NCBI GenBank assembly: GCA_963710105.1
Contig: CAVPYV010000001.1
Span: 1,935,032-1,999,031, forward strand
DNA from: an uncultured Chloroflexia bacterium
GTDB lineage: Bacteria > Chloroflexota > Limnocylindria > Limnocylindrales > CSP1-4
DNA length: 64,000 bases
Reading direction: 5' to 3'
Shown: positions 3,149 through 49,625 of the stretch, in pieces
Position numbering within the stretch: the first letter of the stretch is position 1
How the letters are laid out: each line of letters starts with the position of its first letter
The notes under the pieces: model-generated
Database searches by the model: none
What the model was told of the DNA's origin: nothing
What the model saw: the letters and a program-made list of their open reading frames with translations, nothing else
Program-made: the position numbers and the translations under genes

Positions 3149-3490
3149 TCAGGCCGGATCGAGGACCCGGAGCGGGGTCCGGCAGGCGAACCACACGCCG
3201 GGCCGCACCTCGCCGCCATACAGCTCGACGCGGTCGCCGGTGGCCGCGATCGTCCGGCCGAGCGGGTCGATGACGAACAGCCGGTCGCCGACCGCGCGGA
3301 AGGAGAACCCGTCGCGCCAGTCGATCTCGACGTGGCGCGCGCCGTCGAGGTATCCGACGTCGGACCCGAGGGGCTCGAGTGTCCCGGTGGTCACGTTCGC
3401 CGGGCAGGCATCGACGAGTGTCCCGGTCGGCCCCGTCCCGCAGGCGGCGAGCAGCGCGGCAAGGACGAGGATCGCCGCCCGCGCGGTCAT
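3149..3490 (-). CDS. Small lipoprotein, function unknown
   Basis: MTARAAILVLAALLAACGTG has a signal peptide plus lipobox (LAAC). Start trimmed to ATG 3490 within ORF 3149..3685. Confidence 0.6.
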   Translation of the reverse strand: MTARAAILVLAALLAACGTGPTGTLVDACPANVTTGTLEPLGSDVGYLDGARHVEIDWRDGFSFRAVGDRLFVIDPLGRTIAATGDRVELYGGEVRPGVWFACRTPLRVLDPA

Positions 3491-3494
3491 CGCG

Positions 3495-4145
3495 TCAGTG
3501 CTCTTCGCTCCCCCCGGCGAGGCGCTCGCCGGCGTGGATCGGAACGGGGAGCCGGTTCTCGGCCGGCGTGAGCGGGCACGAGAACTGGGGCGCGTAGACG
3601 CAGGACGGGTGGTAGGCGAGGTTGAAGTCGATCGCGTACGTCCCGTCCTCGTCGGGCTCGAGGTCCAGATAGCGGCCGGCGCCATACGTCTCGGTGCCGC
3701 TCGTCGCGTCGAGGAACGGCAGGAAGAGCGACTCCGGCCGGCCGTCGTTGAGGACGTAGGCGGTCAGCTGACGCGGCGCCCCATCGAGCTCGAAGCGGAA
3801 GACGCCGGCCCGATGGGCGGGTCGGAGGCGCCCGTCGGAGGTCGGGATCTCGAACCTCGACGGCTCGCTGCCGGTGTACGGCTCGAGCGTCAGGCCCTCG
3901 AAGACGAGATCGACATCGACCGGGTAGTACGGCAGGCCGGTGAAGGCATCGCGCTCTTCCAGGGGGATTGGGCTGCCCGGCGCCGACTTGAAGAAGGCGT
4001 CCTTCTCGGCCCGGTACCCGGCGATCGCGGAGCCGTAGTCGTGCGGCCCGTCGTGGTGGTGATGGTCGTGGCCGTGCTCGTCATGGCCGCCGTGGTCGTC
4101 GTGGCCGTGGTCGTCGTGGCCGTGGTCGTCGTGCTCGGTCGTCAT
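3495..4145 (-). CDS. DUF1684 domain protein with N-terminal His/Asp-rich tract
   Basis: The C-terminal 170 or so aa (YRAEKDAFFK...GLPYYPVD...GAGRYLDLEPDEDG...DFNLAYHPSCVY) match the DUF1684 pattern as I recall it. The N-terminus is HDDHGHDDHGHDDHGGHDEHGHDHHHHD. Confidence 0.75.
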   Translation of the reverse strand: MTTEHDDHGHDDHGHDDHGGHDEHGHDHHHHDGPHDYGSAIAGYRAEKDAFFKSAPGSPIPLEERDAFTGLPYYPVDVDLVFEGLTLEPYTGSEPSRFEIPTSDGRLRPAHRAGVFRFELDGAPRQLTAYVLNDGRPESLFLPFLDATSGTETYGAGRYLDLEPDEDGTYAIDFNLAYHPSCVYAPQFSCPLTPAENRLPVPIHAGERLAGGSEEH

Positions 4146-4156
4146 GGCGCTCCCTG

Positions 4157-4243
<87 letters not shown>

Positions 4244-4365
4244 GCGACGGAGAATAGCGGGCGGCGGGGCTCGAGGGCGCGGATTCACACCCGGCTCGAC
4301 CGTCGGCCGGCGACGCCCGGCGAGGGCGGGCGTCGCGACGCGAGGATGTTGGGAGCGACGATCGA

Positions 4366-4764
4366 TCAGGCGTGCTCGTCGTCGGCGTCGGCTTCCGCCT
4401 TGGTCCGATGGATCGTTCCGGGCGCGTGCTGGGGCGGCGCGTAGACCGTGTACAGCTTCAGGTCGGCCGCGCCGTCGTTGACGAAGTTGTGCCGCGTGCC
4501 CGCCGGGACATGGACGAGGCGGCCGGGGCCGACCGGGCTTCGCTGGCCCTCGAGGACGGCGGCGCCCGCGCCCGCGACGAACACGAGGACCTGATCGACG
4601 TCGGGGTGGACCTCCTCGCCGATCTCGCCGCCGGCGGGGATGCTCATCACGACGACCTGGGCATGCGGCCCGGTCGAGACGACCTCGCGGAAGAAGGAGT
4701 TGGCCTTCGCCCGTGCGGCGATGTCGGCGCTGAATGGCTCGAAGACCTTCGGGGTCATGGTCAT
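4366..4764 (-). CDS. Cupin domain protein
   Basis: GGEIGEEVHPDVDQVLVFVAGAG...LVHVPAGTRHNFVN matches the two cupin motifs. Start set at MTMTPKV (ATG 4764), with AGAGAGG upstream. Confidence 0.75.
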   Translation of the reverse strand: MTMTPKVFEPFSADIAARAKANSFFREVVSTGPHAQVVVMSIPAGGEIGEEVHPDVDQVLVFVAGAGAAVLEGQRSPVGPGRLVHVPAGTRHNFVNDGAADLKLYTVYAPPQHAPGTIHRTKAEADADDEHA

Positions 4765-4854
4765 GTCGACCTCTCTTTCAGGCCAACGATGGCCCCATGT
4801 CCGGCGAGCGCGCCAGAGCCGAACGGGGGGGTCGCGATCGACCACGCGTGGGCC

Positions 4855-6201
4855 TCAGGTGCGGGCAACGATCGCGTCGCGGCCGAGATACGGGCGGAGG
4901 ACGTCGGGGACCTCGACCGAGCCGTCCGGCCGCTGGTACGTCTCGAGGATCGCGGCGACGACCCGGGCCAGGGCGAGCCCCGACCCGTTGAGCGTGTGGA
5001 CGAGCTCCGGCCTGGCGCCGGGCTCGGGCCGCCAGCGGATCGCCATCCGGCGCGCCTGGTAGTCGCGGAAGTTCGAGCACGAGCTGACCTCGAGCCAGGC
5101 CTCGACGCCCGGCGCCCAGACCTCGAGGTCGTACTTCTTCGCCTGGACGAACCCCATCTCCTTCGTCGCCATCAGGAGGACGCGGTACGCCAGCCCGAGC
5201 CGTTGGAGGAGGATCTCGGCCCGCTCGGTGAGCCATTCGAGGGCGGCCGCGGACTCGGCCGGCTTCTCGAAGAACACCATCTCGACCTTGTCGAACTGGT
5301 GGACCCGAAGGATCCCGCGGGTGTCCTTGCCGGCCGCCCCGGCCTCGCGCCGGAAGCACGGCGAGTAGGCGGCGTAGCGGATCGGGAGCTGGTCGGCCTC
5401 GAGGATCTCGTCGCGATGGAGGTTCGTGACCGGGACCTCGGCGGTGGGGACCAGGTAGAGCTCGTCGCGGGTGACGACGTACATCTGGTCTTCCTTGTCG
5501 GGGATCTGGCCGGTCCCGGTGGCCGATGCCGTGTTGACGACGGCCGGCGGCCAGACCTCGGTCATCCCGTTCTCGCGGGTGTGGACGTCGAGGAAGAAGT
5601 TGATCAGCGCCCGTTGGAGCGCGGAGCCGGCGCCCTTGTAGACCGGGAAGCCGGAGCCGCTGATCTTCGCGCCGCGCGGGTTGTCGATGATGTCGAGCTC
5701 GGTGGCGAGCTCCCAGTGCGGGCGGCGGCGCCAGGTGGCGGCGCCGACCGCCGCGTCCGCGCCGACCTCGCCGACGACCGGCTGCTCGACGGGCAGGAGC
5801 TCGCCCCACGTTCGGACGGTGACGTTCGCCTCCTCGCCGCCGACGGGCACGTCCGGGTCGGCCGGGTTCGGGATCCGGAGGAGGAGCTGCTCGACCTCGG
5901 TCTCGACCGTGGCCAGCTCGGCGTCGATCGTCTCGATCTTGCGGCCTGCCTCGACCGACGCTGCCTTGAGGGCGGCAACCTCGGGGCCGTCCGGCTTCGC
6001 GCCGGCCTTGATCGCCGCGCCGACCTGCTTGCTGGCGGCGTTCCGCTCGGCCTTGAGGGCGTCCCCCTCGCCGAGGAGCGTCCGGCGGCGCGTGTCGAGC
6101 TCGAGCGCCCGGTCGACGATCGCGGGGTCCTCGCCCTTGTCGATCGCGCCGCGGCGGATCGTGTCCGCGTCCTCGCGGAGGCGTTGCAGCCCGACGCTCA
6201 T
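4855..6201 (-). CDS. serS: Serine--tRNA ligase
   Basis: N-terminal coiled-coil arm (LRRGAIDKGED...ELDTRRR...) and class II core (FRREAGAAGKDTRGILRVHQFDKVE, TLNGSGLA). Confidence 0.95.
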   Translation of the reverse strand: MSVGLQRLREDADTIRRGAIDKGEDPAIVDRALELDTRRRTLLGEGDALKAERNAASKQVGAAIKAGAKPDGPEVAALKAASVEAGRKIETIDAELATVETEVEQLLLRIPNPADPDVPVGGEEANVTVRTWGELLPVEQPVVGEVGADAAVGAATWRRRPHWELATELDIIDNPRGAKISGSGFPVYKGAGSALQRALINFFLDVHTRENGMTEVWPPAVVNTASATGTGQIPDKEDQMYVVTRDELYLVPTAEVPVTNLHRDEILEADQLPIRYAAYSPCFRREAGAAGKDTRGILRVHQFDKVEMVFFEKPAESAAALEWLTERAEILLQRLGLAYRVLLMATKEMGFVQAKKYDLEVWAPGVEAWLEVSSCSNFRDYQARRMAIRWRPEPGARPELVHTLNGSGLALARVVAAILETYQRPDGSVEVPDVLRPYLGRDAIVART

Positions 6202-13924: not shown

Positions 13925-15004
13925 GTGAACCCGGCCCTGGCGGCGATCGCCGCGATCACGATCGCCGGCGCCGTCCTCGCCGTCTCCGCCCGCGACGTCC
14001 GGGCGACCCTGCTCGGCCTGCTCGTCGTCCTCCTCGGCGCGCCCCTCGTCACCGCCCCGTGGCCCGATCCCCTCTCGGTCCTCGCCCGGATCGCCGCCAC
14101 GCTCCTCGCCGTGCGACTTGTCTCGATCAGCCTGCGCGGTGACCTCACGACGAACGGAACCCGGATCGGCTGGCCGGCCGAGGCGCTGCTCGCGGGCTCC
14201 GCGGCCGTCGTCGGCTTCGGCAGCCACGGCCTGGGGGCGGCGCCGCTCGGCCCGGCCGAGGCGCAGGCCACCGGCTTCGCCCTGGTCGTGCTTGCCGTCG
14301 CGCCGCTGTTCGCCGGCCGCGACGCCATGCGGCTCTCGGTCGGCGCCCTCCTCCTGCTCGTCGGGGCCACGGCGATCCGGACGGCCCTCGACGCGCCGGC
14401 GAGCCAGGCCGAGCAGCTCGTCGGCGCCCTGCTCACGATCGCCCTCGGCGGCGCGATCGCCGTGATCGTCGTCGCCGCCCGCGCGGCCGGTGGGCTGGCC
14501 GCGGTCGATGCGGCCACGATCGGGCCGGCAGCCGTGCGACCGCCCGACGCCCATCGGCCCGCCGAGCGGGCGCCGCGAACCGCCACCTCGCGACGCGCCC
14601 CGGCGCCGGCGGTCGCGAGGGCGGGCGCCGGTTCGGCCGCGCCGCGATCCGGTTCGGCCGCGTCGCGATCCGGTTCGGCCGCGCCGGGATCCGCGCCAAC
14701 CGAGCCGCCCGCCCCCGGAGCCCGGGGACCGCGGCGCCCACCTCCGGAGCCTGTCCGTCCGACCGCTCCCGAGCCGGCCCGGGTCCGACCCGCGCCGGTC
14801 GCGCAGCCCGGGCTGTGGGGTCAGCTGCCTGTCGAGCCCGACGCACCCGATCCTCCGACCGAGCGCCTGCCCGAAGCGACCGCCACCACGCCGACGGCGG
14901 AGCCGAGCCCCGGCGCGGCCGTCGAGCCGCGCCCGACCCGGCCCGCCCGCGCCGCGCGCTCGACCCGCCGCAAGCCGGGCCCGACGCCGGAGGACCGGCC
15001 GTGA
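13925..15004 (+). CDS. Polytopic membrane protein with Pro/Ala/Arg-rich C-terminal tail, function unknown
   Basis: About 6 hydrophobic segments in the first 200 aa, then a low-complexity tail (RSGSAASRSGSAAPGSAP...). The stop overlaps the next gene's start (GTGA at 15001-15004). Confidence 0.5.
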   Translation: MNPALAAIAAITIAGAVLAVSARDVRATLLGLLVVLLGAPLVTAPWPDPLSVLARIAATLLAVRLVSISLRGDLTTNGTRIGWPAEALLAGSAAVVGFGSHGLGAAPLGPAEAQATGFALVVLAVAPLFAGRDAMRLSVGALLLLVGATAIRTALDAPASQAEQLVGALLTIALGGAIAVIVVAARAAGGLAAVDAATIGPAAVRPPDAHRPAERAPRTATSRRAPAPAVARAGAGSAAPRSGSAASRSGSAAPGSAPTEPPAPGARGPRRPPPEPVRPTAPEPARVRPAPVAQPGLWGQLPVEPDAPDPPTERLPEATATTPTAEPSPGAAVEPRPTRPARAARSTRRKPGPTPEDRP

Positions 15005-16620
15005 CCGTCCTGCCGTTCGTGATCGTCGCCGCGGCGGCCGGGACGGCCGCGCTCGTCGTCCGTGCCCACCGCGGGTGGTCGACCCTGATCGCGCTCGCGG
15101 GCCTCGCCGCGATGATCGCCGTCGCGGCCTCGATCGACCCCCGGGCCGCCATCCGGATCGGCGGCACGACCCTCGCCGCGTCGGAGTGGCTGCGTCTCTA
15201 CGCCCTCCTCGGCAGCGTCGTCGGGCTGCTCCTCGTCGCGGTCGACGCGTCGGCGATCCACGAGCCGGACGTTCCCGGCATCGTGGTCCTCGGCCTGGGG
15301 GCCGCCGTCCTCGCCCTTGCCCTGCCCGATCCCGGGATCGCCGTCCTCGCCGCCACGGCCGGCGGTCTTGCCGGGATCCTCGTCGCGGCCCCGGTCGGGG
15401 CGGCCGCCCGGGCTGCGTCCGTCGGCATCCGCGAGCTGCGGGCGATCGCCGTCGCCGGGACGCTCGCGATCGTCGCCACCGCGTGGCTCGCCCGGCCGCT
15501 CGACGACCTCGTGGCGGCGCCCGAGGTGTTCGGCCTGGCCTACCTCGCGTTCGCGGTCGCGGTCGCGATCCGCTTCGGCGCCATCCCCTTCCACCTCTGG
15601 GCGGCCCGCGTCGCCGACGCGGCTCCGGGCGTCGCCCTGCCGCTCCTCATGGCCTGGGGCCCGGCCGCCCTCGCCGCGGTTGCCCTGACCTGGGTCGACC
15701 AGGCCGTCGCCCCGCTCGCCCTGCCGCTCGCCAACGAGCGGACGCTGATCGCCGCCATCGGCGCCGCCAGCGTCGTGCTCGGGATCGTCGCCGCCCTGAT
15801 CCAGGACGACCTCGAGCACGTCGTCGGCTACACGATCGTCGCCGACGCCGGGTTCGTCGTCCTCGCCCTCGCCGGGCTCGACCCCGGTGTCTGGGAGTCG
15901 AGCCGGACCTGGCTCCTGGTCTTCGTCGTCGGCCGGAGCGCGTTCGCCGCGTGGGCGGTGGCGATCCACGGCGGATACGGGACGCGGCGCCTGCCGGACC
16001 TCGCCGGCTGGGCCCGGCGGACCCCGCTGCTGGCCGTCGCCCTGGCGGTCGGCTCTGTCGCGGCGATCGGCTGGCCCGGGCTCGTGGCCTGGGAGGCACG
16101 GGCGACGCTCGCCCGGTTCGCCCTGCCGGACGTGGTCTCCAGTCTCGTCGCCATCGCCCCCGTCGCGGCGGCGGCGATCTACATCCGGATCCTGTGGATC
16201 GGCGTCCAGCGGCCCGGGCCGGCGGTCCGGGCCGGATCCGGCGAGCGACCCGGCTGGCCGATCCGCTGGCCGCACCGGCCGATGGTCGGGCTGGGCACGA
16301 CCGAGCGCCTGTTCGAGCGGGCGGCCCACGCCTTCGCCGGGCTGCTCGACCAGCTGTGGGCGCTGCCGGCGGCGGCCCGCCTGAACCGCGTCCCGCTCGC
16401 GTCGGTGGCGGTCCTCGCCCTGGCCGTCCTGGCCTTCGCCGTCGGGGGCGGCGGCCTCGGCGTGCCCGAGGCGGCGGCCGCGGTTCCGGTCATCGGCGGA
16501 CCCGCCAGCGACGGCGGGGTGGCGCCCTCCGCCGGGCCGGATGGCGGGCAGCCCGGGGAGACACCGGGCATCACGTTCCAGCCGGTCGGCGGGTCGGCGG
16601 CGCCGGACGAGGCCAACTGA
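15001..16620 (+). CDS. Divergent complex I subunit N/M / MrpD-like (antiporter-type) membrane protein
   Basis: [21 protein letters not shown] and [20 protein letters not shown] align to the K-x-G-x2-PFH-x-W-x-PD and L-x-Q-x-D-x-KR-x-x-AYSS boxes of the proton-antiporter family, but key residues are replaced. About 14 TM segments. GTG 15001 chosen as start. Confidence 0.6.
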
Positions 16621-36906: not shown

Positions 36907-37370
36907 ATGGCCGCGATTCGTCGAACCGTGACACTGGCCTCGCTCGTTCGGCGCCGAATCGAGTCACCGGCGCATCGCGCGGCAGCCCGCCACCTCCGAC
37001 GGCCGAGGACGGCAGGCGGCAAGGCAGCCATCGTCGTTCCGCCGCGACAGCCAAACGGCTCTGGCAAGTCTCGCGACTGCGTTCGTCGCGGATGGGCGCG
37101 TCAGCGCAAGGCGGCCGCGAGCACCGGAGCGAGCAGGCGCCAACGCCTGTGAGCGAGGCGCGCAGCGGCCAACGCGGCGATGGCGTGCCCAGGCGCGACA
37201 GCCATCGGCTCTGGCAACCCTCGCGACTGCGTTCGTCGCGGCGGGGCGACGAGGTCAAGGCGCCGCCGAGGACCGCAGCGAGCGCACTCGGACGTGCGTG
37301 AGCGAGGACCGCAGGCGGCAACGCCGCCATCGTCGTTCCGCCGCGACAGCCAAACGGCTCTGGCATCGTC
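36907..37370. repeat. Tandem array (about 3 units) of a roughly 150-bp GC-rich intergenic repeat
   Basis: Units start at 37075 and 37225 (GACTGCGTTCGTCGCGG...), an exact 150-bp period. A more degenerate unit lies at about 36907-37074. Shared blocks are GAGGACCGCAGGCGGCAACGCCGCCATCGTCGTTCCGCCGCGACAGCCAAACGGCTCTGGCA. Confidence 0.75.
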
Positions 37371-39414: not shown

Positions 39415-39807
39415 TCAGCCGCGGCGGGCCTCGAGCTCGACCTCGACGAGCATCGACGGATCGATGAGACCGGCGACCCGGACGAGGGTCGCGGCCGGGC
39501 GGATCGAGCCGAACAGCTCCCCGTTGACCGCGGCCACCGCGGCCGCGTCCTCCGGCCGGACGATGTACATCCGGGTCCGGACCACGTCACCGGCGGCGAA
39601 CCCCGCCTCCTCGAGGGCACCGAGCGCGATCGCGATCGCGGCCCGCGCTTGGGCAGCCGCGTCGCCGGCATGGAGCGAGCGCCCGTCGGGACCCGCGTCC
39701 GTCGTCCCCGCGACCCAGCACGAATCGCCGACCGCGACCGCCCGGCTGTAGCCGTAGCGGGCCTCGTAGGGGCTGCCGGACGAGACGAGCCGCCGCTCCG
39801 GGCTCAC
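39415..39807 (-). CDS. RidA/YjgF family protein
   Basis: YSRAVAVGDSCWVAGTT...RTRMYI...PAATLVRVAGLIDPSMLVEVELEA. The GTG start overlaps the M20 peptidase stop (GTGA). Confidence 0.85.
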   Translation of the reverse strand: MSPERRLVSSGSPYEARYGYSRAVAVGDSCWVAGTTDAGPDGRSLHAGDAAAQARAAIAIALGALEEAGFAAGDVVRTRMYIVRPEDAAAVAAVNGELFGSIRPAATLVRVAGLIDPSMLVEVELEARRG

Positions 39808-41060
39808 GAGGTCGCGGCGGGTCCCGCCTCCCGCCAGCCGCGGACGACCGGGTCGCGCCCGATGGCGAGGAGCAGTCCCGCGAGCAGGGCGGTCCGCGGA
39901 ACGATCGAGGCGACCTCGAGGTACTCGGCCGGCGAGTGGTCCATCCCGCCGATCGGCCCGAGACCGTCGATCGAGGGGACCCCCATCCCGGCGGTCGTGT
40001 TCGCGTCGGATGCGCCGCCGGTCGCCGCGTCGTGGATCTCGAACCCCAGCCGCCGGGCGACCGCCTGGGCGTGCTCGACGAGCCGCCCGGACCGCTCGAG
40101 CTTCTCCATCGGCCACCAGCGGGCCATCGGCTCGAGGTCGGCGGTGACGTCCGGAACGGCGAGCGAGCCGAGCATCGTCCGGATCTCGGCCTCGGCCGCC
40201 TCGAGGTCGGCCCGGCGGACGGCGCGGATGTCGACCTCGAGCGAGCAGCGCTCGCCGACGACGTTCGGGCGAGTCCCGCCGGCGATCACCCCGACGTTGA
40301 TCGTCACGCCAGGCCACCGCCCGTTGAGGGCGTGGAGGCGGGTCACGAGGTCGGCCGCGGCGAGGATCGCGGAGCGGCCCTTCTCGGGCTCGACGCCGGC
40401 GTGGGCGGCTCGACCGCGGACGGTGATCCGGGCGTCGAGGATCCCCTTGCGCGAGGAGACGATGTCGCCGTTGGCCCGGGCGCACTCCAGGACGAGGCAG
40501 GCGTCGGCGTCGGCGGCGACCGCCCGGATGTGGGGGGTCGAGCTCGGCGAGCCGATCTCCTCGTCGGGGTTGGCGACCCAGGTGAGTCGCTCGAACGGCA
40601 GGCGGCCGGCGGCGGCCAGCGCCTTCACCGCGTAGAGCCCGGCCAGCAGACCCGACTTCATGTCGGTGACGCCGGGCCCGCGGGCGATCCCCTCGGCGTC
40701 GATCGCGAACGGCCGCTCGGCGGCGGTGCCCGGGTCGAACACGGTGTCCATGTGGCCGATCAGGACGATCCGCGGGCCGCCCGCCGTCCCGCGCTCCCCG
40801 TCCCAGGTGCCGATGACCGTCGCCCCGCGGCTGCCCTCCGGGTCGGGCCGGACCTCGACGGTCGCGCGGTTGGCGGTCATGAACCCGGCGACCCAGCGCC
40901 CGACCTCGTCGACGCCGGCCGGCGTGTACGAGCCGCAGTCGATGTTGACGAGCCGGGCCAGGTCGGCGAGATACGCCGGCTCGTCGGCCCGGATCGCGGC
41001 CTGCAGGGCGAGCAGCTCGGCGTCGGCCACGGCCTCGCCCGGTGCGGTCGTCGTGTCCAT
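39804..41060 (-). CDS. M20 family metallopeptidase (carboxypeptidase G2 / ArgE / DapE-like)
   Basis: LIGHMDTVF, GPGVTDMKSG, NPDEEIGSPSS, and a dimerisation insert followed by GGASDAN. Confidence 0.9.
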   Translation of the reverse strand: MDTTTAPGEAVADAELLALQAAIRADEPAYLADLARLVNIDCGSYTPAGVDEVGRWVAGFMTANRATVEVRPDPEGSRGATVIGTWDGERGTAGGPRIVLIGHMDTVFDPGTAAERPFAIDAEGIARGPGVTDMKSGLLAGLYAVKALAAAGRLPFERLTWVANPDEEIGSPSSTPHIRAVAADADACLVLECARANGDIVSSRKGILDARITVRGRAAHAGVEPEKGRSAILAAADLVTRLHALNGRWPGVTINVGVIAGGTRPNVVGERCSLEVDIRAVRRADLEAAEAEIRTMLGSLAVPDVTADLEPMARWWPMEKLERSGRLVEHAQAVARRLGFEIHDAATGGASDANTTAGMGVPSIDGLGPIGGMDHSPAEYLEVASIVPRTALLAGLLLAIGRDPVVRGWREAGPAATS

Positions 41061-41066
41061 CGGCCA

Positions 41067-41072
41067 AGTCTA
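41067..41072 (-). promoter_or_regulatory. -10-like hexamer TAGACT, 6 nt upstream of the M20 peptidase ATG
   Basis: The minus strand reads ccgccTAGACTtggccgATG. Confidence 0.35.
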
Positions 41073-41149
41073 GGCGGCGGCCGAGGCCGCCGCCGGGCCG
41101 CCGAAACGGTCGCGTCGCGCCCCGATCGGGGCGTTATCCTCCCCGAACC

Positions 41150-42964
41150 GTGCGACTGATCGAGATCCGGCTGCTCGAGGGACCGAACGTCTACCGGCTC
41201 GAGCCGGTGGTCAAGATCGAGGTCGCGATCGGCCGGCGACGGACGTGGTATGGCCAGCGGAGCCCCGGTCGCCACGCCCTGGTCCATCTCGGCGCCGACG
41301 TCCCCGCCCGCGAATGGCCGCTCCCGATCGAGGAGCTCGTTGGCTGGCTCCGTCGCCTGCGGGTCGATCACGGCGAGGGACGTGGCGGCGTCGTCGTCCA
41401 CCGCTCGTCCGACCCCGGCCACTGGATCGTGACCTACGGCTGGACCGGGGCGGAGCGGGCCCGGACGATCGCCGAGGCGGCACTGGCCCTGACGGAGCGG
41501 GACGTGTCGTCGGTCCGGCGGACCCGCCTGACCGGCAGCCAGGAGCGCCTCCTCGCCCGCTGGACCGCCCGGATCGCCGACGCGCGGGCGACCCCGCCGG
41601 CCTGGGTCCGCGACGCCGATCGGCGGATCCCGATCGTCTCGATCACCGGGACGAACGGCAAGAGCACGGTCACCCGGCTGCTCACCCACATCCTCAAGGT
41701 CGCCGGCCGGCGAGTCGGGACGACGACCTCGGACGGAGTCCTCGTCGACGAGCGGCTCGTCGAGCCCGGCGACTGGACGGGTCCCGGCGGCGCGTGGCAG
41801 GTCCTCGAGCGGTCCGACGTCGACGTCGCCGTCCTCGAGACCGCCCGCGGCGGGCTGGTCCTGCGCGGGATGGGCTACGAGTCGAACGACGCCGCGATCG
41901 TGACGAACATCTCGTCGGACCATCTCGACCTCCAGGGAATCCACACCCTGCCCGAGCTCGCCGAGGTCAAGTCGACCGTCGTCCGGGCCACCCGCCCGGA
42001 CGGCTGGGCGGTGCTGAACGCCGACGACCCGCTCGTCGCCGGGATGGCTCGCCGGGTCCGGGCCAACGTCGCAGTCTTCTCGCTCGGCGACGGGGGCGCC
42101 GCCGCGGCGACCGTCCGGCGGACCGTGGCCGGCGGCGGACGGGCCTACGTCCTGCGCGACGGCTGGCTCGTCGAGATCGACGGCAGCCGCCCCTCGAGCG
42201 GCGCGGCCGACGGCGGTCGGCCGGCGGATGGCGGCGACCCGGTCGAGCACCGGATCCTCGAGGTCGAGCGCGTCCCGATCGCCCTCGGCGGGCTCGCCCG
42301 CCACAACGTCGCCAACGCCCTCGCCGCGGCCGCCGCTGCGCGTGGGATCGGGATCACCCTCGCGCAGCTCCGCGACGGCCTCGCCGACTTCCATCCGACC
42401 TCGGAGCGCTCGCCGGGCCGGCTCAACCTGTTCCGGGTCGGAGCGCGGATCGTCGTCGTCGACTTCGCCCACAACGAGGCCGGGCTCCACGCCGTGCTCG
42501 ACGTCGCCGACGGGATCGCCGGCGGGGCGGCCGGTCGGGCCGCCCCGGTGACCGCGATCGTCGGGACCGCCGGCGACCGGCCGGACGACACCCTCCGTGG
42601 GATCGGCCGGATTGCCGCCAAGCGGGCCCAGCGGGTCGCGATCAAGGAGACGCTGAAGTACCTCCGCGGGCGGAGCCGGGAGTCGATCGTCGGGGAGATC
42701 ATGGCCGGCATCGTGTCGACCGGCCGATCGGCCACGGACGTCCCGATCTATGAGTCGGAGACGGAGGCGCTGCGCTCCGAGCTGGCGCGCAACGGCGAGG
42801 GCGCCGCCCGGCCCGATGCGGCGCGGGTCATCGTTCTGATGTGCCACGAGGAGCGAGAGGAGGTCTTCGCCCTCATCGGCAAGCTCGGCGGCCGCCCGAT
42901 CGATGTCGGCAGCGAGCTGACGACCCTGGTCCCGCGTCTCCAGGCCCGGCCGCGCCGGAGCTGA
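41150..42964 (+). CDS. Cyanophycin-synthetase-like ligase: CphA N domain plus Mur-ligase (M) domain, lacking the ATP-grasp domain
   Basis: VRLIEIRLLEGPNVYRLEPVVKIEV parallels LKIVETRILRGPNYWAREPVVRMVV of the cphA in this window. It is followed directly by IPIVSITGTNGKSTV, ETARGG, VDFAHNEAG and GTAGDRPDD, matching the cphA M-domain boxes IPIVAVTGTNGKTTT, EVARGG, IDYCHNVDG and GIPGDRRDD. 604 aa versus 958 aa. Confidence 0.8.
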   Translation: MRLIEIRLLEGPNVYRLEPVVKIEVAIGRRRTWYGQRSPGRHALVHLGADVPAREWPLPIEELVGWLRRLRVDHGEGRGGVVVHRSSDPGHWIVTYGWTGAERARTIAEAALALTERDVSSVRRTRLTGSQERLLARWTARIADARATPPAWVRDADRRIPIVSITGTNGKSTVTRLLTHILKVAGRRVGTTTSDGVLVDERLVEPGDWTGPGGAWQVLERSDVDVAVLETARGGLVLRGMGYESNDAAIVTNISSDHLDLQGIHTLPELAEVKSTVVRATRPDGWAVLNADDPLVAGMARRVRANVAVFSLGDGGAAAATVRRTVAGGGRAYVLRDGWLVEIDGSRPSSGAADGGRPADGGDPVEHRILEVERVPIALGGLARHNVANALAAAAAARGIGITLAQLRDGLADFHPTSERSPGRLNLFRVGARIVVVDFAHNEAGLHAVLDVADGIAGGAAGRAAPVTAIVGTAGDRPDDTLRGIGRIAAKRAQRVAIKETLKYLRGRSRESIVGEIMAGIVSTGRSATDVPIYESETEALRSELARNGEGAARPDAARVIVLMCHEEREEVFALIGKLGGRPIDVGSELTTLVPRLQARPRRS

Positions 42965-42969
42965 GCGAG

Positions 42970-43488
42970 GTGGCCTGGGACGATGGGTTCCGGAGGCCCG
43001 AGGGACTCGATCGCGCGATCACGAGCGTTCACTCGGCCGACGACCTCGCGGCGGCCTATCGCGAGGCGGCCGACCGGGGCCGGCGGTCGGCGCGCGTCGA
43101 CGGGTCGCCGTACGTCGTCCAGCTCGGCGGGTCGGTCGAGGGGATGGCGGTCGACCTCGTCGTCCGGATCCTCCGGGCCGACGGGGGGCGGCAGCGGCCG
43201 AAGACGCGCCTCCGGGCGACCGGCTCCATCCGCGCCGGGGACGGGGGATCCACGCTCGAGGTCCGGATCGCCCCCGACGACCGCCGGACCGCCGCCTGGA
43301 CGATGGGCGTCCCGGCCGCGGCCGTCGCGCTCATGCTCGTCGCCGGCGTGCCCGTCGCCGGCGTCATCGTCGTCGGCGGCCTCGCGGTCCCGAACGTGCT
43401 GCTGGCGATCCGATCCGGCCAGCGGTTCGTCCTGCGCTCGCTGAGCCAGGTCGAGGCGTTCCTCGAGGCGATCGCCCACGGAGGCTGA
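42970..43488 (+). CDS. Hypothetical protein with C-terminal TM segments (172 aa)
   Basis: GTG 42970 lies 6 nt after the ligase stop, with GAGCGAGG just upstream. TM stretch VPAAAVALMLVAGVPVAGVIVVGGLAVPNVLLAI. No family recognised. Confidence 0.45.
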   Translation: MAWDDGFRRPEGLDRAITSVHSADDLAAAYREAADRGRRSARVDGSPYVVQLGGSVEGMAVDLVVRILRADGGRQRPKTRLRATGSIRAGDGGSTLEVRIAPDDRRTAAWTMGVPAAAVALMLVAGVPVAGVIVVGGLAVPNVLLAIRSGQRFVLRSLSQVEAFLEAIAHGG

Positions 43489-43545
43489 ACGGCGGCGGCC
43501 GAGGCCGCTCGGAATCAGTCGCGGGCCTGGCGTCGACCCGCCCGG

Positions 43546-44631
43546 TCAAGCCCCGCCGGCGGCGGCGAGCAGCTCCTCGAGGCGGCGGAACGGCTGCCAG
43601 GCACCCTCCGACACGTTCGACTGGACGACGACCCGCTCGCCGCCGGCGAACGCCCAGCAGCGGCAGCTGAACCCGGGGTCCTCGCCGCTGTGGCCGATCC
43701 GGGTTGTCGGCCCCGCCCCGCCGTGGACGACGCCGAGCCCGTAGCCGGCCTTCTCGACCGGGCTGACCGCATGGGGTCCGATCATCCGCGCCCGGGTCGG
43801 CGCGGTGAGATACGCCGCGCCGGCCGGCCCGCGCCGGGTCAGGCCGTCGAGCGCCCGGACGAGGTCGGCCGCGGTGGCCTGCGCGCCGCCGTCCGGCAGG
43901 CCCATCGCCGGCATCGCGAAGACGTTCGTCCGCCAGGCAGCGGCCGGCGCCCCCGCCGGCGCCTCCGGATCGGGCGGCAGGTAGCCGACCGCCAGGTCGG
44001 GCTCGATCGCATCGAGGGCCCAGAACCCGCTCGAACGCATCCCGAGCGGCTCGAGCACCTCGGCCCGGACGAGATCCGGATACGGCCGTCCGGTGCGCTC
44101 CTCCAGCGCCAGGCCGGCGAGCACGTACGCGCCGTTGTTGTAGCGAGCGGCCGCGCCCGGATCGCCGGTCCGGGTCAGATCCCGCATCAACGGGACGAGG
44201 TCGCGCGCGCCGCGGATCGCACCCGGCGGCACGCGCTCCCAGATCGTCTCGTACGGCGGCCCGTCGTACTCGTCGGCGTAGTCGCCGACGCCGGACGTGT
44301 GGCTCAGGAGGTGGAAGAGGGTCACGCGCTCGTCGAGGTCGCTCGGCCGAAGCTCCTCCGGCAGGCAGTCGACGAGGCGATCGTCGTATCCGACGACGCC
44401 GCGATCGACGAGCCGGGCGACGGTCAGGCCGGTCAGGAGCTTGGTCGTCGAGGCGATCCCGAAGCGGGTCCCCGCGTGGTTCGCGATGCCGGCGGCACGA
44501 TCCGCGAGGCCGAGCGCGATCGTGAGCGGCTCCTCGTCGTCGTCGCCGGCAACGTGGACGACGCCGCTGAAGTCCTCGTCCGAGAGCCAGTCGCGATATG
44601 CCGCGACGTCGAGCCGGGCGAGCCGGCTCAC
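43546..44631 (-). CDS. Serine hydrolase, beta-lactamase / PBP4*-like family
   Basis: S-x-x-K motif FGIASTTKLLTG and YNNGAY (Y-x-N). 361 aa, GTG start. Confidence 0.85.
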   Translation of the reverse strand: MSRLARLDVAAYRDWLSDEDFSGVVHVAGDDDEEPLTIALGLADRAAGIANHAGTRFGIASTTKLLTGLTVARLVDRGVVGYDDRLVDCLPEELRPSDLDERVTLFHLLSHTSGVGDYADEYDGPPYETIWERVPPGAIRGARDLVPLMRDLTRTGDPGAAARYNNGAYVLAGLALEERTGRPYPDLVRAEVLEPLGMRSSGFWALDAIEPDLAVGYLPPDPEAPAGAPAAAWRTNVFAMPAMGLPDGGAQATAADLVRALDGLTRRGPAGAAYLTAPTRARMIGPHAVSPVEKAGYGLGVVHGGAGPTTRIGHSGEDPGFSCRCWAFAGGERVVVQSNVSEGAWQPFRRLEELLAAAGGA

Positions 44632-44636
44632 CTAGA

Positions 44637-44763
44637 GACTGCGTTCGTCGCGGATGGGCGAGGCGGGCAAGGCGCGCCCGAGCACCGCAGCGAGCGCACC
44701 CGCAGGTGCGTGAGCGAGGACCGCAGAAGGCAACGCCGCCAGCGTCGTCCAGGCGCGACAGCC
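44637..44763. repeat. Single copy of the 150-bp repeat family, filling the cphA-hydrolase intergenic space
   Basis: GACTGCGTTCGTCGCGGATGGGCG...GAGCACCGCAGCGAGCGCAC...GTGCGTGAGCGAGGACCGCAG...GGCGCGACAGCC aligns block by block with the units at 37075 and 37225. Confidence 0.7.
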
Positions 44764-44767
44764 GTGT

Positions 44768-47644
44768 TCAGCCTTCCGGAACCTCGAACTCGCCCGGGTC
44801 GGCGAAGGCGGTGGTCCCGCGGGCGTGGCCCGCGGCCGCCATCGCCTCGCGGTAGACGCCGATCGCGTTGTCGACGCAGCACACCACGAGGTCGCCGGGT
44901 GCCGCCCGGCGGAGGCCGGCCCGGACGGCGGTCATCTCGTCGAGCATCTTCTCCGCCTTCAGGGTCCGGCCGCCATCGCCCCGCGCGGCGCGGATCCCGT
45001 CGATCACGTTGCCGGCAGACACGCCCGGGGCCCGGCCGCGGAGGTTGGCGTCCTCGCGGACGATGATCTCGTCGAAGGCGCGGGCCGCGATCGCCCCGTA
45101 CTCGCGCTGGTCGTCGTCGCGCCGGTCGCCGGGGATCCCGATCACGCCGATCGCCCGGCCGCTCCGGGTGTGGCCGTTCGAGGACGGCCCGATCCGGCCG
45201 GCCTTCGACTGCGGCTCGGTCATCATCCGTTCGACGAAGTCGGCCAGCTGGCGCATGCCGTCAACGTTGTGGCAGTAGTCGATCACGACGCGGATCCCGC
45301 CGACGTCGAGGAGGTTCAGCCGGCCCGGCGCCTGGAAGAACGAGGTCGAGAACGTCCGCAGCCCCTGGCGGATGTCGTGGAGATGGGCGCCGGCGGCCCA
45401 CGCGGCGGCGGCCGCGGCGAGCGCGTTCGCAACGTTCATCCGGGCCCGCCCGCCGAAGGTCGCCGGGATCAGGTGGGTATAGAGGACCGGCATCGTCCGC
45501 GGGCCATGGCGGAGGACGATCAGCTCGCCCTCGGGCCCGGGCTGGAGGACGAAGGCGGCGTTGCCACGGGCGGTGTGGCCATCGACCCGGTCGAAGCCGT
45601 CCTCGCCCTTGTGGGTCGCCATGCTGAACAGGACGACCCGGCCGGAGCAGTGCCGGCCCATCCGGTAGACGTAGCTGTCGTCGGCGTTGAGGACCGCCGT
45701 TCCCGACCGCGGCACCGCCTCCACGACGACGCCCTTGACGTTCGCCAGCTGGCCGAGCGAGTCGATGCCGCCGATGCCGAGGTGGTCGCCGGTGACGTTC
45801 GTCACGACCGCGACATCGTTGCGGTCGTAGCCGAGGCCCTCGCGCAGGATCCCGCCCCGGGCGACCTCGAAGACGGCCGTGTCGACGGTCGGGTTCTGGA
45901 GGACCATCTGGGCCGACTTCGGGCCCGACATGTCGCCCTTCTTGATCATCCGGCCGTCGATGACGATGCCGTCGGTCGAGGTCATCCCGACCCGCTTGCC
46001 CTTGAGCTTGAGGATGTGGGCGATCATCCGGACCGTCGTCGTCTTGCCGTTCGTGCCGGTCACCGCGACGATCGGGATCCGCGACGGCGAGCCCGGCGGG
46101 AAGAGGCCGTCGATGACCGGCCGGGCGACGTACTGCGGCTCGCCCTCGGTGGGGTGGGTGTGCATCCGGAAGCCGGGAGCGGCGTTGACCTCGACGATCG
46201 CCCCGCCGGTCTCGCGGACGGGCGTCGCGATGTCGGGGCAGATGAAGTCGATCCCGGCGATGTCGAGGCCGATGATCTGGGCCGCCGTCTCGGCGATCTC
46301 GACGTTGTCGGGGTGGGCCTCGATCGTCCGGTCGATCGACGTCCCGCCCGTCGACATGTTGCCGGTCAGCGCGAGCTTGACGAAGGTGTCCGCCGGCGGC
46401 ACGTCGTCGAGCTCGAAGCCCTGCTCGCGGACGAGGGACTCGGCGGCGGCGTCGAGGCCGATCCGGGTGAGGACCTTCTCGTGGCCGATCCCGCGCCGCG
46501 GGTCGGCGTTGGCGAGGTCGACGAGCTGGCGGACGGTTCGCTCTCCGTCGCCGACGACGCTGGCCGGGACGCGCTCGGCGATCGCGGCGACCTTGCCGCC
46601 GATGACCAGGCAGCGGTAGTCGTTGCCCGCGACGTAGCTCTCGACGACGAGGTCGCCGCTGCGGCTCTGGGCGCGGGCGCCGTGGAACGCGGCGCGGACC
46701 GCCTCGTCGCTCCGCAGGTCGAGGTGGACGCCCCGGCCGTGGTTGCCGTCGAGGGGCTTGACCACGCAGGGGAAGCCGATCCGGCGGGCGGCGGCGACGG
46801 TGTCCTCCTCGGTCGCCACGACGGCGCTCTTCGGGACGGGCAGGCCGGCCGAGTCGAGGAGCCGGTTCGTCAGGCTCTTGTCGCTGGCGATGTCGACCCC
46901 GATCGCGGACGTGATCGAGGTCATCGTCGCCCGGATCCGCTGCTGGTGGACGCCCTGGCCGAGCTGGACGAGGCTGTGCCGATCGAGCCGGATGTAGGGG
47001 ATGTCGCGGCTCGCCGCCTCGTCGAGGATCGCCTGGGTCGACGGCCCGAAGGCGGCCCGCTCGGCGAGCCGGATGAGCCGCTCGAGCTCGGCCATGAAGT
47101 CGAGGCTCGCGGTCTCGTCGTTCGGGGCGACGAGGTGGTTGACGAGGGCGACCGCGATCTTGCCGGCCTCGACGCCGACCGCCTCCTCGCGGAACTCGTA
47201 GATGACGTTGTAGCGGCCGTGCTCGCCGGTGCTCCGGGTCTTGCCGTGGCGGACGTCAGTGCCGGCGAGGTTCTGGAGCTCGAGGGCGATGTGCTCGGCG
47301 ATGTGGCCGGCCCATGTGCCCTCGCGGAGCCGGGTGATGAAGCCGCCCCGCCGGCCGAGGCTGCAGGCGTGGTCCTCGAGGCTCGGCAGGAGGCCGACGA
47401 GGGCGTCGGTGAAGCCCGGGATCTTGTTGCTCGGGAAGTCCTCGAGGACGCCGAGGTCGACGACCATCCGGACGACCGGCTCGCGGGCCCAGTAGTTCGG
47501 GCCGCGCAGGATCCGGGTCTCGACGATCTTCAGGGTCGGCTCGGGGCGGGTGCCGGTCGTGGGATTGTCGGCCGCGCGGCGACGCGGCTTCGCCGCCGTT
47601 TCGGTCGTCGTCCTGGACCGTGCCCTGGGTGCCGCCTCCGCCAC
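44768..47644 (-). CDS. cphA: Cyanophycin synthetase (N, ATP-grasp and Mur-ligase domains)
   Basis: N domain (ILRGPNYWAREPVV...), ATP-grasp domain (LLDSAGLPVPKS...VVKPLDGNHGRGV...) and M domain (VTGTNGKTTT, DYCHNVDG, GIPGDRRDD). GTG start with GGAGGG 4 nt upstream. Confidence 0.95.
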   Translation of the reverse strand: MAEAAPRARSRTTTETAAKPRRRAADNPTTGTRPEPTLKIVETRILRGPNYWAREPVVRMVVDLGVLEDFPSNKIPGFTDALVGLLPSLEDHACSLGRRGGFITRLREGTWAGHIAEHIALELQNLAGTDVRHGKTRSTGEHGRYNVIYEFREEAVGVEAGKIAVALVNHLVAPNDETASLDFMAELERLIRLAERAAFGPSTQAILDEAASRDIPYIRLDRHSLVQLGQGVHQQRIRATMTSITSAIGVDIASDKSLTNRLLDSAGLPVPKSAVVATEEDTVAAARRIGFPCVVKPLDGNHGRGVHLDLRSDEAVRAAFHGARAQSRSGDLVVESYVAGNDYRCLVIGGKVAAIAERVPASVVGDGERTVRQLVDLANADPRRGIGHEKVLTRIGLDAAAESLVREQGFELDDVPPADTFVKLALTGNMSTGGTSIDRTIEAHPDNVEIAETAAQIIGLDIAGIDFICPDIATPVRETGGAIVEVNAAPGFRMHTHPTEGEPQYVARPVIDGLFPPGSPSRIPIVAVTGTNGKTTTVRMIAHILKLKGKRVGMTSTDGIVIDGRMIKKGDMSGPKSAQMVLQNPTVDTAVFEVARGGILREGLGYDRNDVAVVTNVTGDHLGIGGIDSLGQLANVKGVVVEAVPRSGTAVLNADDSYVYRMGRHCSGRVVLFSMATHKGEDGFDRVDGHTARGNAAFVLQPGPEGELIVLRHGPRTMPVLYTHLIPATFGGRARMNVANALAAAAAAWAAGAHLHDIRQGLRTFSTSFFQAPGRLNLLDVGGIRVVIDYCHNVDGMRQLADFVERMMTEPQSKAGRIGPSSNGHTRSGRAIGVIGIPGDRRDDDQREYGAIAARAFDEIIVREDANLRGRAPGVSAGNVIDGIRAARGDGGRTLKAEKMLDEMTAVRAGLRRAAPGDLVVCCVDNAIGVYREAMAAAGHARGTTAFADPGEFEVPEG

Positions 47645-47703
47645 GGAGCCCTCCTGCCGTGCTCAACCCCTTCGCGAGAGGCGAGTGTAACCGCCGTCCG
47701 CCG

Positions 47704-48138
47704 TCAGGACGACGGAAAGACGGCGATCGGGAAGCCCTCCCTCGCGGCCGCCTGAGCCAGGCGATCGTCGAGGGTGACGAACGTCAGGCTCGAGGGGTCG
47801 CCCTCGCCAGCGGTCACCGCCGCCGCCAGTTGCAGGGCGTCGCCCGCGCGCAGCGGGTGGACGCGAATCAGGCGAATGGCCGTGCGACGGATCGGCGCTG
47901 AGGGCTGCATCTCCAGCCACGCAGCGGCAAGGACATCGAGCCGCTCGATCGCCGCGCTGGTCGTCCTGTCATCGTTGAGGCCGTCGCGCTCGCGTCGGGC
48001 GATGGCGGAAGCGCACTCGATGCTCGTCCCCCACCACGCGACCATCTCCGGATCGCGTCGGTATTCGGCGCCGACCGACCGGCTGAGCTCCTCCTCGAGG
48101 AGCAGCGGAACGATCGCCGACGAGTCCCAGAACCTCAT
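47704..48138 (-). CDS. vapC: PIN-domain toxin (VapC-like)
   Basis: MRFWDSSAIV (first acidic residue), a middle Glu, RAGDALQLAAA and FVTLDDRL, the typical PIN acidic quartet positions. Confidence 0.85.
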   Translation of the reverse strand: MRFWDSSAIVPLLLEEELSRSVGAEYRRDPEMVAWWGTSIECASAIARRERDGLNDDRTTSAAIERLDVLAAAWLEMQPSAPIRRTAIRLIRVHPLRAGDALQLAAAVTAGEGDPSSLTFVTLDDRLAQAAAREGFPIAVFPSS

Positions 48139-48141
48139 CGC

Positions 48142-48435
48142 TCAGCGACCGGTTCGCCGCTCTTCGAGCAACGCGTCGAGGAGGCTCGCGCCAGGGGAGC
48201 CCGCGGGCCCGGGTTGGAGAATCAGGTCGACGGGTGGCGGCGTCACGCCACGTTTGGCGAGACCGGCGCGTTCGAGGCGGGCCGCGCGCCCATCGCCATC
48301 GCCTGCCCCGGTGATCGGCTCGAGTCGGGCCACGGGTGTCCCGCGATCGAGGATGAGGATGCTCTCGCCGCTCTTGACCCGGTCGATCAGCGCGCTGAGG
48401 CCGTTCTTGGCCTGGGTGATCGTCGCCGTCTTCAT
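48142..48435 (-). CDS. vapB: Phd/YefM-type antitoxin (VapB partner)
   Basis: MKTATITQAKNGLSALIDRVKSGESILILDRGTPVARLEP is a Phd/YefM N-terminal fold signature. It ends 3 nt before vapC. Confidence 0.85.
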   Translation of the reverse strand: MKTATITQAKNGLSALIDRVKSGESILILDRGTPVARLEPITGAGDGDGRAARLERAGLAKRGVTPPPVDLILQPGPAGSPGASLLDALLEERRTGR

Positions 48436-48453
48436 CTGGCTATTCTAGCCAGA
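48435..48453 (-). promoter_or_regulatory. Perfect palindrome TCTGGCTA-gaa-TAGCCAGA overlapping the vapB start, with TAGAAT (-10) in its centre: putative operator/promoter
   Basis: The minus strand reads TCTGGCTAGAATAGCCAGATG. TAGAAT (48447-48442) lies exactly 6 nt upstream of the ATG, and the 8-bp arms are perfectly complementary. Confidence 0.5.
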
Positions 48454-48584
48454 TCGATCGGCCCTGCAAGCCCCCAGGAACCAGCGCTTTGCCCGAGGGC
48501 ACCTCCCGTACGGACTGCGCCTGGGACTGGCATTCGCGTGACGCGACGCCCTCGTCGCAATGCGTGATCTCGCCCGAGCGTCAG

Positions 48585-49427
48585 TCAGGACGAGGCCGCC
48601 TCCTCCACACCGCCGGGCAGGGCGTGCAGGGTCGGCGTCGCGAGCCGGTGCCGCCGGCGGAGGTCGAAGCGGTAGCCGGCCGGCAGCGAGTGGAGGACGA
48701 CGCCGCTGATCATCAGCGGCTTGTGGCCGCGGATCTCCCAGGCATCGGTCTCGGAGGCCGAGCCGTCGACGACGGTGATGCTCCCCCGTCCGATCACCTC
48801 CATCACGTGGTCGGGCCCGACGACGCCGGCGGTGTCCTCGTCGACGCCGAGGCCGAGCAGCGACGGGTTCTGGGCGATGAGCGAGAGGAGCCGCCCGAGC
48901 CGGTTCCGCTGCTGGAAGTGCTGGTCGACGATGACGCCCGGCAGCATCCCGAGCCCGGCCGCGATCTGAGCCATCCGGTGCTTCGGCGTCGCGCCGGACG
49001 CGCCGAAGGCGATCATGTGGCTGCTCATCGCCGACGCGCCGGCGGACGTGCCGGCCATCACCGCCCCGTGCCGGAACCGCTCGAGCATCGCGTCGGCGAG
49101 GCGCGTCCCGCCGATCGTCGAGGCAAGCTTGAGCTGGTTGCCGCCGGTCAGGAACACGCCGGTCGCATCGCGCAGCGCCAGGGCCACGGTCTCGTCGTTC
49201 GCCTGGGGCCGGGTCGTCGCGTGCAGCGTCCGGACCGCCTGGACCCCGAGGTCGGTGAAGATCTGGCGGTAGCGCTCGCCGGCTTCGGTCCCGAGGCTCG
49301 ACGCGGTCGAGATCACCGCGATCGTCGCGTCGCGACCGCCGGCGAGCGCGACAAACCGGTTGAGGATCACCCGATCGCGGATCTTGTCCTCGGCCCCGCC
49401 GATGATGATCACGGTCCCGTCGGTCAC
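48585..49427 (-). CDS. cphB: Cyanophycinase (peptidase S51)
   Basis: VIIIGGAEDK, FLTGGNQ, the nucleophile box MAGTSAGASAMS, and DQHFQQRNRLGRL. GTG 49427 has AGGGAG 8 nt upstream; ATG 49472 is an alternative start. Confidence 0.9.
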   Translation of the reverse strand: MTDGTVIIIGGAEDKIRDRVILNRFVALAGGRDATIAVISTASSLGTEAGERYRQIFTDLGVQAVRTLHATTRPQANDETVALALRDATGVFLTGGNQLKLASTIGGTRLADAMLERFRHGAVMAGTSAGASAMSSHMIAFGASGATPKHRMAQIAAGLGMLPGVIVDQHFQQRNRLGRLLSLIAQNPSLLGLGVDEDTAGVVGPDHVMEVIGRGSITVVDGSASETDAWEIRGHKPLMISGVVLHSLPAGYRFDLRRRHRLATPTLHALPGGVEEAASS

Positions 49428-49625
49428 GCGCGCGCTCCCTGAACTCGGATCGGGGAAGGATAGCGCGGGCATCGAGCCGAGACCCGCCGCCGGCCCGCGC
49501 GGCGGGTTGCGGTTCGGGGTCGGATGCTTCGCCGGCCCGACCCGCGCCAAAGGATCCGGCGAGCCGGATGACACCCCTCGCGCGGACGACGGTCGCGACC
49601 CGGGCGTCTGCGAGAATGCGCCGGG

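Follow-up and report, generated by a model that had tools for sequence, protein, structure and literature searches.

A probable cyanophycin locus in a soil-type Limnocylindria genome, with a convergent CphA paralogue lacking the G domain and a divergent M20 peptidase as candidate for the last degradation step

The present analysis concerns a set of genes assigned to cyanophycin metabolism (cph genes) and their neighbours in a stretch of 64,000 nucleotides, referred to here as the window, from contig CAVPYV010000001.1 (positions 1,935,032 to 1,999,031) of assembly GCA_963710105.1. The assembly, which represents a soil-type Limnocylindria member of the Chloroflexota, comprises 3.47 Mb in three contigs with a marker completeness of 82%, and the G+C content of the window is 73%. 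The close homologues of the window genes bear the label 'Candidatus Limnocylindrales'. Reading frames were selected on the basis of third-position GC and subsequently checked against Pfam and NCBIfam. On the minus strand, the locus consists of cphB, a putative toxin-antitoxin pair, cphA1, an intergenic repeat and a gene for a beta-lactamase-fold serine hydrolase; these converge on a plus-strand gene for a CphA paralogue, designated here as the N-M ligase, and a small open reading frame (ORF), which in turn lie divergent from an M20 metallopeptidase gene that is followed by a RidA/YjgF-family gene (Table 1). All of the genes that an earlier, sequence-only reading had placed in this order were recovered, with small corrections to their coordinates.

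Table 1. Features of the cyanophycin locus and its immediate neighbours, with coordinates in the window.
Feature	Coordinates	Strand	Evidence and remarks
RidA/YjgF-family protein	39415-39807	-	PF01042 67.8 bits, above cut-off; TIGR00004 41.7 bits vs 106
M20 metallopeptidase, CPG2-like, candidate beta-Asp-Arg hydrolase	39804-41060	-	PF01546 102 bits; PF07687 86 bits
Divergent M20/ligase promoter spacer	41061-41149		89 bp
N-M ligase	41150-42964	+	N domain and Mur-ligase-like M domain, no ATP-grasp domain; convergent with cphA1
Orphan ORF	42970-43488	+	172 amino acids, one C-terminal hydrophobic helix; codon-position GC 0.79/0.55/0.95, coding-like
Beta-lactamase-fold serine hydrolase	43546-44631	-	PF00144 172.6 bits; no NCBIfam equivalog
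Copy of GC-rich intergenic repeat, occupying the cphA1/hydrolase spacer	44631-44763		133 nt; 86% identity to 37219-37351
cphA1, full-length cyanophycin synthetase	44768-47644	-	TIGR02068 1134.5 bits vs cut-off 850
PIN-domain toxin candidate (VapC-like)	47704-48138	-	PF01850 22.8 bits, E 1.5e-4; cut-off of 23.6 marginally missed
Phd/YefM-type antitoxin, between cphB and cphA1	48142-48435	-	PF02604 35.3 bits (cut-off 29.8); TIGR01552 26.9 bits
cphB, cyanophycinase (peptidase S51)	48585-49472	-	TIGR02069 264.7 bits vs cut-off 126.6

Concerning the two canonical genes, CphB exceeds the equivalog cut-off for cyanophycinase and carries the catalytic serine motif GTSAGA, which is invariant in an alignment of seven sequences (alignment A1). 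CphA1 likewise exceeds its equivalog cut-off and possesses the three domains of a full-length synthetase, namely the N domain, the ATP-grasp domain G and the Mur-like domain M, with PF18921, RimK/ATP-grasp, Mur_ligase_M and Mur_ligase_C all matched. The two genes adjoin one another in every related locus examined, and clustering of cphA1 and cphB has been reported for 81% of the genomes having both (Sharon & Schmeing 2023, PMC10206079). The window resembles the known non-cyanobacterial cphA1-cphB clusters in that a full-length CphA1 and an S51 cyanophycinase are encoded next to one another on one strand, while it differs from them in the conservation of a third gene, a CphA paralogue without a G domain, and in that neither IadA nor IaaA was found in the genome.

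The product of this third gene, the N-M ligase, aligns with the cyanophycin synthetase model TIGR02068 over positions 474-842 only. Its residues 159-521 share 40% identity with residues 522-884 of CphA1, corresponding to the M domain, and its residues 1-40 share 35% identity with the beginning of the CphA1 N domain, while Pfam and NCBIfam scans of the protein gave no match to an ATP-grasp domain. The M domain extends over its full length, contains the P-loop GTNGKST at residue 167 and is matched by PF08245 (83.9 bits) and by PF02875 at 27.6 bits, slightly below the cut-off of 28.4. By virtue of this P-loop, and with CphA as the nearest among the Mur ligases (371 bits for TIGR02068 versus 114 bits for MurE), the M domain is of the CphA type. 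A designation of the protein as CphA2-like was considered and ruled out. CphA2, a beta-Asp-Arg polymerase, relies on an active G domain as its sole catalytic domain, its M domain being truncated and inactive (PMC10273328); the N-M ligase is likewise a shortened CphA1 paralogue encoded near other cph genes, but it presents the reverse situation, with a complete M domain that includes the P-loop and no G domain. No functional description of a CphA paralogue without a G domain was found in the searchable literature. At the DNA level, positions 41623-41784 and 45921-46082, within the M-domain parts of the ligase gene and cphA1, form a 162-nt inverted repeat that is 73% complementary; it reflects the similarity of the two genes and is a possible substrate for recombination.

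The conservation of these genes was assessed in a total of approximately 150 related loci, with a class sample of 251 genomes, a phylum (Chloroflexota) sample of 401 genomes, and a cphB profile scan of one genome per species which yielded 80 cphB loci. The class loci included 14 further loci of the same genus, ten from other genera of the first Limnocylindria family (f1, to which the genus of the window belongs) and ten from a second family (f4); f19 denotes a family from another Chloroflexota class. In the class sample, 47 of 73 f1 genomes and 80 of 83 f4 genomes carry both the ligase and cphA1, as against none of the 92 genomes of two other families; in almost all positive genomes the ligase query matched two proteins and no more, namely the ligase itself and cphA1. 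The 14 further loci of the genus are entirely collinear with the window, although this collinearity extends equally to unrelated flanking genes (azlC, a gene of unknown function, a GT87 glycosyltransferase gene and an MFS transporter gene), for which reason synteny within the genus was dropped as functional evidence. All 20 class loci from outside the genus show the M20 gene divergent from the ligase gene and the latter convergent with cphA1-cphB, and in f4 the other flanks are all different: one side carries genes for a thioesterase and for 2-oxoacid dehydrogenase, the other side genes for M16 peptidases and a DnaJ-domain protein. The trio of ligase, cphA1 and cphB is also present in all six f19 loci, among flanking genes unrelated to cyanophycin, and the arrangement of cphB-cphA1, a gap and a convergent N-M ligase gene is common among the 80 cphB loci in Actinomycetota (Nocardioides, Kribbella and many metagenome-assembled genomes, MAGs) and in Thermomicrobiales. 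Across the phylum sample, cph genes were detected in 51 of the 401 genomes.

Ten genomes from seven genera lack the ligase, cphA1 and cphB jointly, and in these the M20 gene directly abuts the GT87 gene that is the usual neighbour beyond cphB. Since M20 is kept where the trio has been lost, the unit of presence and absence is ligase-cphA1-cphB, with M20 outside this unit and maintained without it. The sequence-only reading had seen in the island a larger functional module than the textbook pair of cphA and cphB; this holds for the N-M ligase, which co-occurs with the pair, but the other neighbours do not form one module with it, and the functional core is one of three genes, neither two nor seven. 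In a separate family, f32 (loci L093, L095 and L096, from genomes of 6 Mb with approximately 50% G+C), an ORF of 542 amino acids matches the CphA M domain only and is unlinked to the cphB-cphA1 pair, being located, for example, 3.8 Mb away from it in genome G478.

A block of four genes, M20 together with the trio, was furthermore encountered on three contigs of MAGs labelled as Actinomycetota (L125, L137 and L138), the M20 proteins of which are 47-50% identical, and the ligases approximately 45% identical, to those of the window. The RpoC of one of these hosts shares 59% identity with that of the window genome, as compared to 56% for Nocardioides, 74% within the class and 68-73% within the phylum, and the flanking genes on these contigs look foreign to Limnocylindria. 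Two phyla thus share the four-gene block, most simply as a result of its transfer as a unit.

With regard to the M20 protein, the best NCBIfam match is the glutamate carboxypeptidase model PRK06133, at 274.4 bits under a cut-off of 349, so that the protein is not placed in that subfamily. The nearest solved structure is that of CPG2 from Pseudomonas sp. RS-16 (1cg2; E 1.5e-38 over residues 20-401), with which the protein shares both the catalytic and the dimerisation domain. At H103, D133, E167, E168, E192 and H375 the alignment shows the same residues in CPG2, in the motifs that we take to contain its metal ligands and the catalytic (general-base) Glu. This assigns the protein to the CPG2-like members of the M20 family and, as its active-site residues are intact, it looks active; its predicted fold follows from the similarity of its sequence to that of CPG2. 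In one member of the genus (L044, G009:C11, positions 3339-4956), the M20 match ends at residue 325 of 418 and the RidA gene is in two pieces in different frames, which could represent gene decay or assembly errors.

The M20 and ligase genes had been described as divergent across a spacer of 90 bp, and it is only the length that requires amendment, to 89 bp. In f1, the spacers conserve TAGACT 6 nt ahead of the M20 ATG and (TTGC)TATCCT ahead of the ligase GTG, these boxes being -10-like and back-to-back, and in relatives the spacer can be reduced to 44 nt. The presence of conserved boxes within so short a distance suggests that M20 and the ligase are transcribed from back-to-back, probably leaderless, promoters. 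The window spacer also harbours, at 41073-41090, an exact 18-nt GC-rich motif, GGCGGCGGCCGAGGCCGC, a second copy of which is located just past the orphan ORF at 43491-43508, so that the two copies flank the ligase gene and the orphan ORF; 0.05 copies would be expected by chance in the window. The spacer copy is situated inside a 22-nt palindrome, and the motif was not found in the M20/ligase spacers of relatives. M20 is adjacent and divergent to the ligase in 14 of 14 loci of the genus, 10 of 10 loci of other f1 genera and 10 of 10 f4 loci, the overall figure for class loci with the trio being 44 of 44, and among the approximately 150 loci it stands beside the trio only in Limnocylindria and on the L125, L137 and L138 contigs.

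Three types of beta-Asp-Arg hydrolase are known, namely IadA, IaaA and CphZ, and more than a quarter of cyanophycin producers are without IadA and IaaA, with other hydrolases clustering with the cph genes (PMC9974463, PMC10206079). Workers in the cyanophycin field have stated that, for many producers, the enzyme that completes degradation has yet to be identified (PMC10206079, PMC9974463). The window had been noted to encode no isoaspartyl dipeptidase, and this absence holds genome-wide: the search for canonical iaaA and iadA genes was extended to the whole of the 82% complete genome, and no match was obtained for IadA (TIGR01975), IaaA (PF01112) or the CphZ-type AstE/AspA domains (PF04952, PF24827). 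Five f19 genomes also gave no match to IadA or IaaA, and each contains one unlinked M20 homologue of 41-46% identity. Nocardioides hwasunensis (L144) and Kribbella lupini (L171), both of which possess the trio, gave no match to PF01112 or TIGR01975 at E <= 1e-10. The problem of the missing step reaches beyond the Limnocylindria lineage. In a published survey, all 35 of the cphA1-bearing Actinomycetota examined there had IadA or IaaA, Chloroflexota not being treated separately (PMC10206079). A contrast within the Actinomycetota, by which genomes with an adjacent M20 would be those without IadA and IaaA while the others would have them, failed, as N. hwasunensis and K. lupini were also without a match. 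The notion that the gap between cphA1 and the ligase serves as a slot for the dipeptidase was rejected as well, the Actinomycetota gaps being without IadA or IaaA and containing instead an MFS transporter, a cupin, a Dyp peroxidase, trehalose genes and one beta-lactamase-fold gene. As a separate observation, three small genomes of family f2 (G025, G027 and G028; approximately 1.1-1.4 Mb), which have neither cph genes nor an M20 orthologue, carry a gene of the AstE/AspA family (PF24827, approximately 107 bits).

Based on these findings, we favour, with moderate confidence, the interpretation that this is a genuine cyanophycin locus with a core that consists of the cphB-cphA1 operon and the convergent CphA paralogue without a G domain, and in which M20 is the best candidate for the last step. 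CphA1 would make multi-L-arginyl-poly-L-aspartate, to which the N-M ligase would probably add, or on which it would restore, side-chain residues, because it carries the CphA1 domain that joins arginine to aspartate side chains. CphB would then cleave the polymer to beta-Asp-Arg, for the splitting of which the divergent CPG2-like M20 protein would be the best available candidate. Beta-Asp-Arg is an N-acyl-arginine with a free alpha-carboxylate, and CPG2, ArgE and DapE, all M20 enzymes, cut this type of bond, releasing the N-acyl group from an amino acid with a free alpha-carboxylate. If M20 is the dipeptidase, it is a broad-use enzyme recruited as a neighbour and not one dedicated to cyanophycin; elsewhere, IadA and IaaA are likewise broad-use hydrolases recruited as neighbours of cph genes. 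A precedent for a dipeptidase assignment of this kind is provided by CphZ (M14/AstE-AspA; Sharon et al. 2023, PMC9974463), which is widespread also in genomes without cphA1 (PMC9974463), although the window protein belongs to M20, with a fold unlike that of M14, and the genome has no AstE/AspA domain. Literature searches retrieved nothing specific that links M20 enzymes to cyanophycin. As the only visible candidate at the locus, and as a conserved neighbour specific to this lineage, M20 is a plausible, if unproven, choice, and its actual identity with the missing beta-Asp-Arg dipeptidase we regard as possible but rather doubtful.

A number of observations weigh against the interpretation that we favour, and most of them concern M20. 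Its orthologues are present in 59 of 73 f1 genomes, thus exceeding those with cph genes, and at least ten cph-free genomes keep an M20 gene of 53-68% identity without internal stops, sometimes together with RidA. M20 was not found within approximately 8 kb of the trio in the six f19 loci, nor, among the 80 cphB loci, near the trio in Thermomicrobiales or most Actinomycetota. CPG2-like homologues of 37-50% identity are present in 175 of the 401 Chloroflexota genomes, including the cph-free families f25 (28 of 28), f18 (9 of 12) and f29 (9 of 11), and a phylum-wide comparison of M20 and cph occurrence was abandoned as support, having no specificity at this level of identity. The boundary between M20 and the ligase is a tiny target of 44-100 bp, the conservation of which could be partly neutral. 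The distribution of IaaA speaks in favour of M20, in that it occurs in 72 of 82 genomes of the cph-free family f3 and in both f5 genomes, versus 2 of 73 in f1 and none of 83 in f4, which are the families with cph genes and M20, but this complementarity reflects no more than two or three independent events. As for the N-M ligase, its probable role is drawn from domain homology alone.

The strongest rival explanation, to which we would assign only a little less than an even chance, is that M20, with RidA, is a housekeeping hydrolase of N-acyl-amino acids or peptides that neighbours the trio through inherited synteny, while an unlinked and unrecognised enzyme splits beta-Asp-Arg. The persistence of M20, with or without RidA, in the ten genomes that lost the trio, the frequency of its homologues in cph-free Chloroflexota, the trios without M20 in f19 and most Actinomycetota, and the generic nature of its best family matches, with the glutamate carboxypeptidase model below cut-off, are all in keeping with such an enzyme. 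It is less readily reconciled with the adjacency of M20 and the ligase, which has outlasted a complete turnover of the other flanks between f1 and f4 and recurs amid foreign flanks in the Actinomycetota-labelled MAGs, with the very compact and conserved divergent promoter region, or with the finding that none of the loci revealed a further candidate gene.

In a second alternative, which we consider improbable, the N-M ligase and M20 would constitute a charge and discharge cycle acting on the side chains of cyanophycin. The ligase would spend ATP to load the free beta-carboxyls of poly-Asp with arginine or a different amino acid, and M20 would remove arginine from the polymer or from beta-Asp-Arg; the side-chain arginines of cyanophycin have a free alpha-carboxylate, as do the substrates of CPG2. 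Were this the case, arginine would be stored and released without rebuilding of the backbone, and a second, undescribed mode of cyanophycin turnover would exist in Limnocylindria and some Actinomycetota.

The serine hydrolase had been put forward, alongside M20, for the missing step, and it carries the motifs S61-T-T-K, Y164-N-N and H314-S-G, as expected of a beta-lactamase or transpeptidase-like protein. That this hydrolase is the missing beta-Asp-Arg peptidase, or another cyanophycin-related peptidase, in this genus appears very unlikely to us. It is encoded immediately after cphA1 in the same orientation, the two genes abutting in G015 and G017, and orthologues of at least 55% identity, found in approximately 18 of 41 genomes of the genus, lie beside cphA1 wherever contig coordinates permit this to be checked. 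The remaining genomes of the genus, however, have only paralogues of at most 41% identity located elsewhere; two copies are broken by stop codons or by a split into two frames (G020:C79:1100-2166 and G645:C2:445214-446288); and the gene is absent from 28 other class and phylum loci, including all 20 from other f1 genera and f4, as well as from the 80 cphB loci. In Nocardioides lijunqiniae (L145), a different beta-lactamase-fold gene (14832-15776; PF00144, 138 bits) occupies the same gap, directly downstream of the ligase gene and before cphA1, and no relation between it and the window hydrolase was detected at E <= 1e-8; the slot between cphA1 and the ligase carries unrelated genes in other lineages. 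Of the two enzymes proposed, M20 is a defensible candidate, whereas the hydrolase is not a general answer to the missing step because it is confined to less than half of one genus, is broken twice and is absent elsewhere.

The RidA-like protein is, by its profile scores, a member of the family but not of the canonical RidA subgroup. Its likeliest start is the GTG at 39807, which overlaps the M20 stop codon as GTGA and thereby bears out the translational coupling to M20 that had been proposed. RidA follows M20 only in f1, all 10 f4 loci as well as three f1 loci being without it. Linkage in relatives is, in sum, kept for the N-M ligase and M20, lost for the hydrolase and partly lost for RidA. 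The idea of a single extended module that unites cphA and cphB with the N-M ligase, M20, RidA and the hydrolase, with RidA processing the products of the peptidase, may appeal to the contiguity of these genes, to the coupling of M20 and RidA and to the collinearity of the entire block within the genus, but it is largely refuted by the synteny data and retains very little probability, given that this collinearity covers unrelated flanks too and is hence uninformative, that RidA and the hydrolase are missing from the loci listed above, and that the products of beta-Asp-Arg hydrolysis would be Asp and Arg, which are not among the enamine and imine substrates of established RidA chemistry. RidA and the serine hydrolase are lineage-specific additions, incidental to the module.

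The remaining features are local, lineage-specific additions that lie outside the module. The Phd-type antitoxin and PIN ORFs between cphB and cphA1 are separated by 3 nt and, among the approximately 150 loci, such a pair was found only in the window and in a Limnocylindrales MAG (L105, positions 1923-2650), where it has the same position and shares 72% and 63% identity; as the insertion is common to both, it is not unique to this genome. A fragment of a PIN homologue was observed in L048/G019. The orphan ORF gave no family match, no homologue in 44 related loci and no paralogue in the genome. Further partial copies of the intergenic repeat are present at 37004-37181.

Taken together, the comparison narrows the island, in that RidA, the serine hydrolase, the toxin-antitoxin pair and the small ORF need no pursuit. 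This type of locus offers the cyanophycin field two clonable targets, the CPG2-like M20 protein and the CphA paralogue without a G domain. The latter, the N-M ligase, is a widespread paralogue in which only the side-chain-ligating half of CphA has been kept, and which has been inherited with cphA1 and cphB in two phyla; if it alters the composition or the yield of the polymer, it would be relevant to the biotechnological production of cyanophycin.

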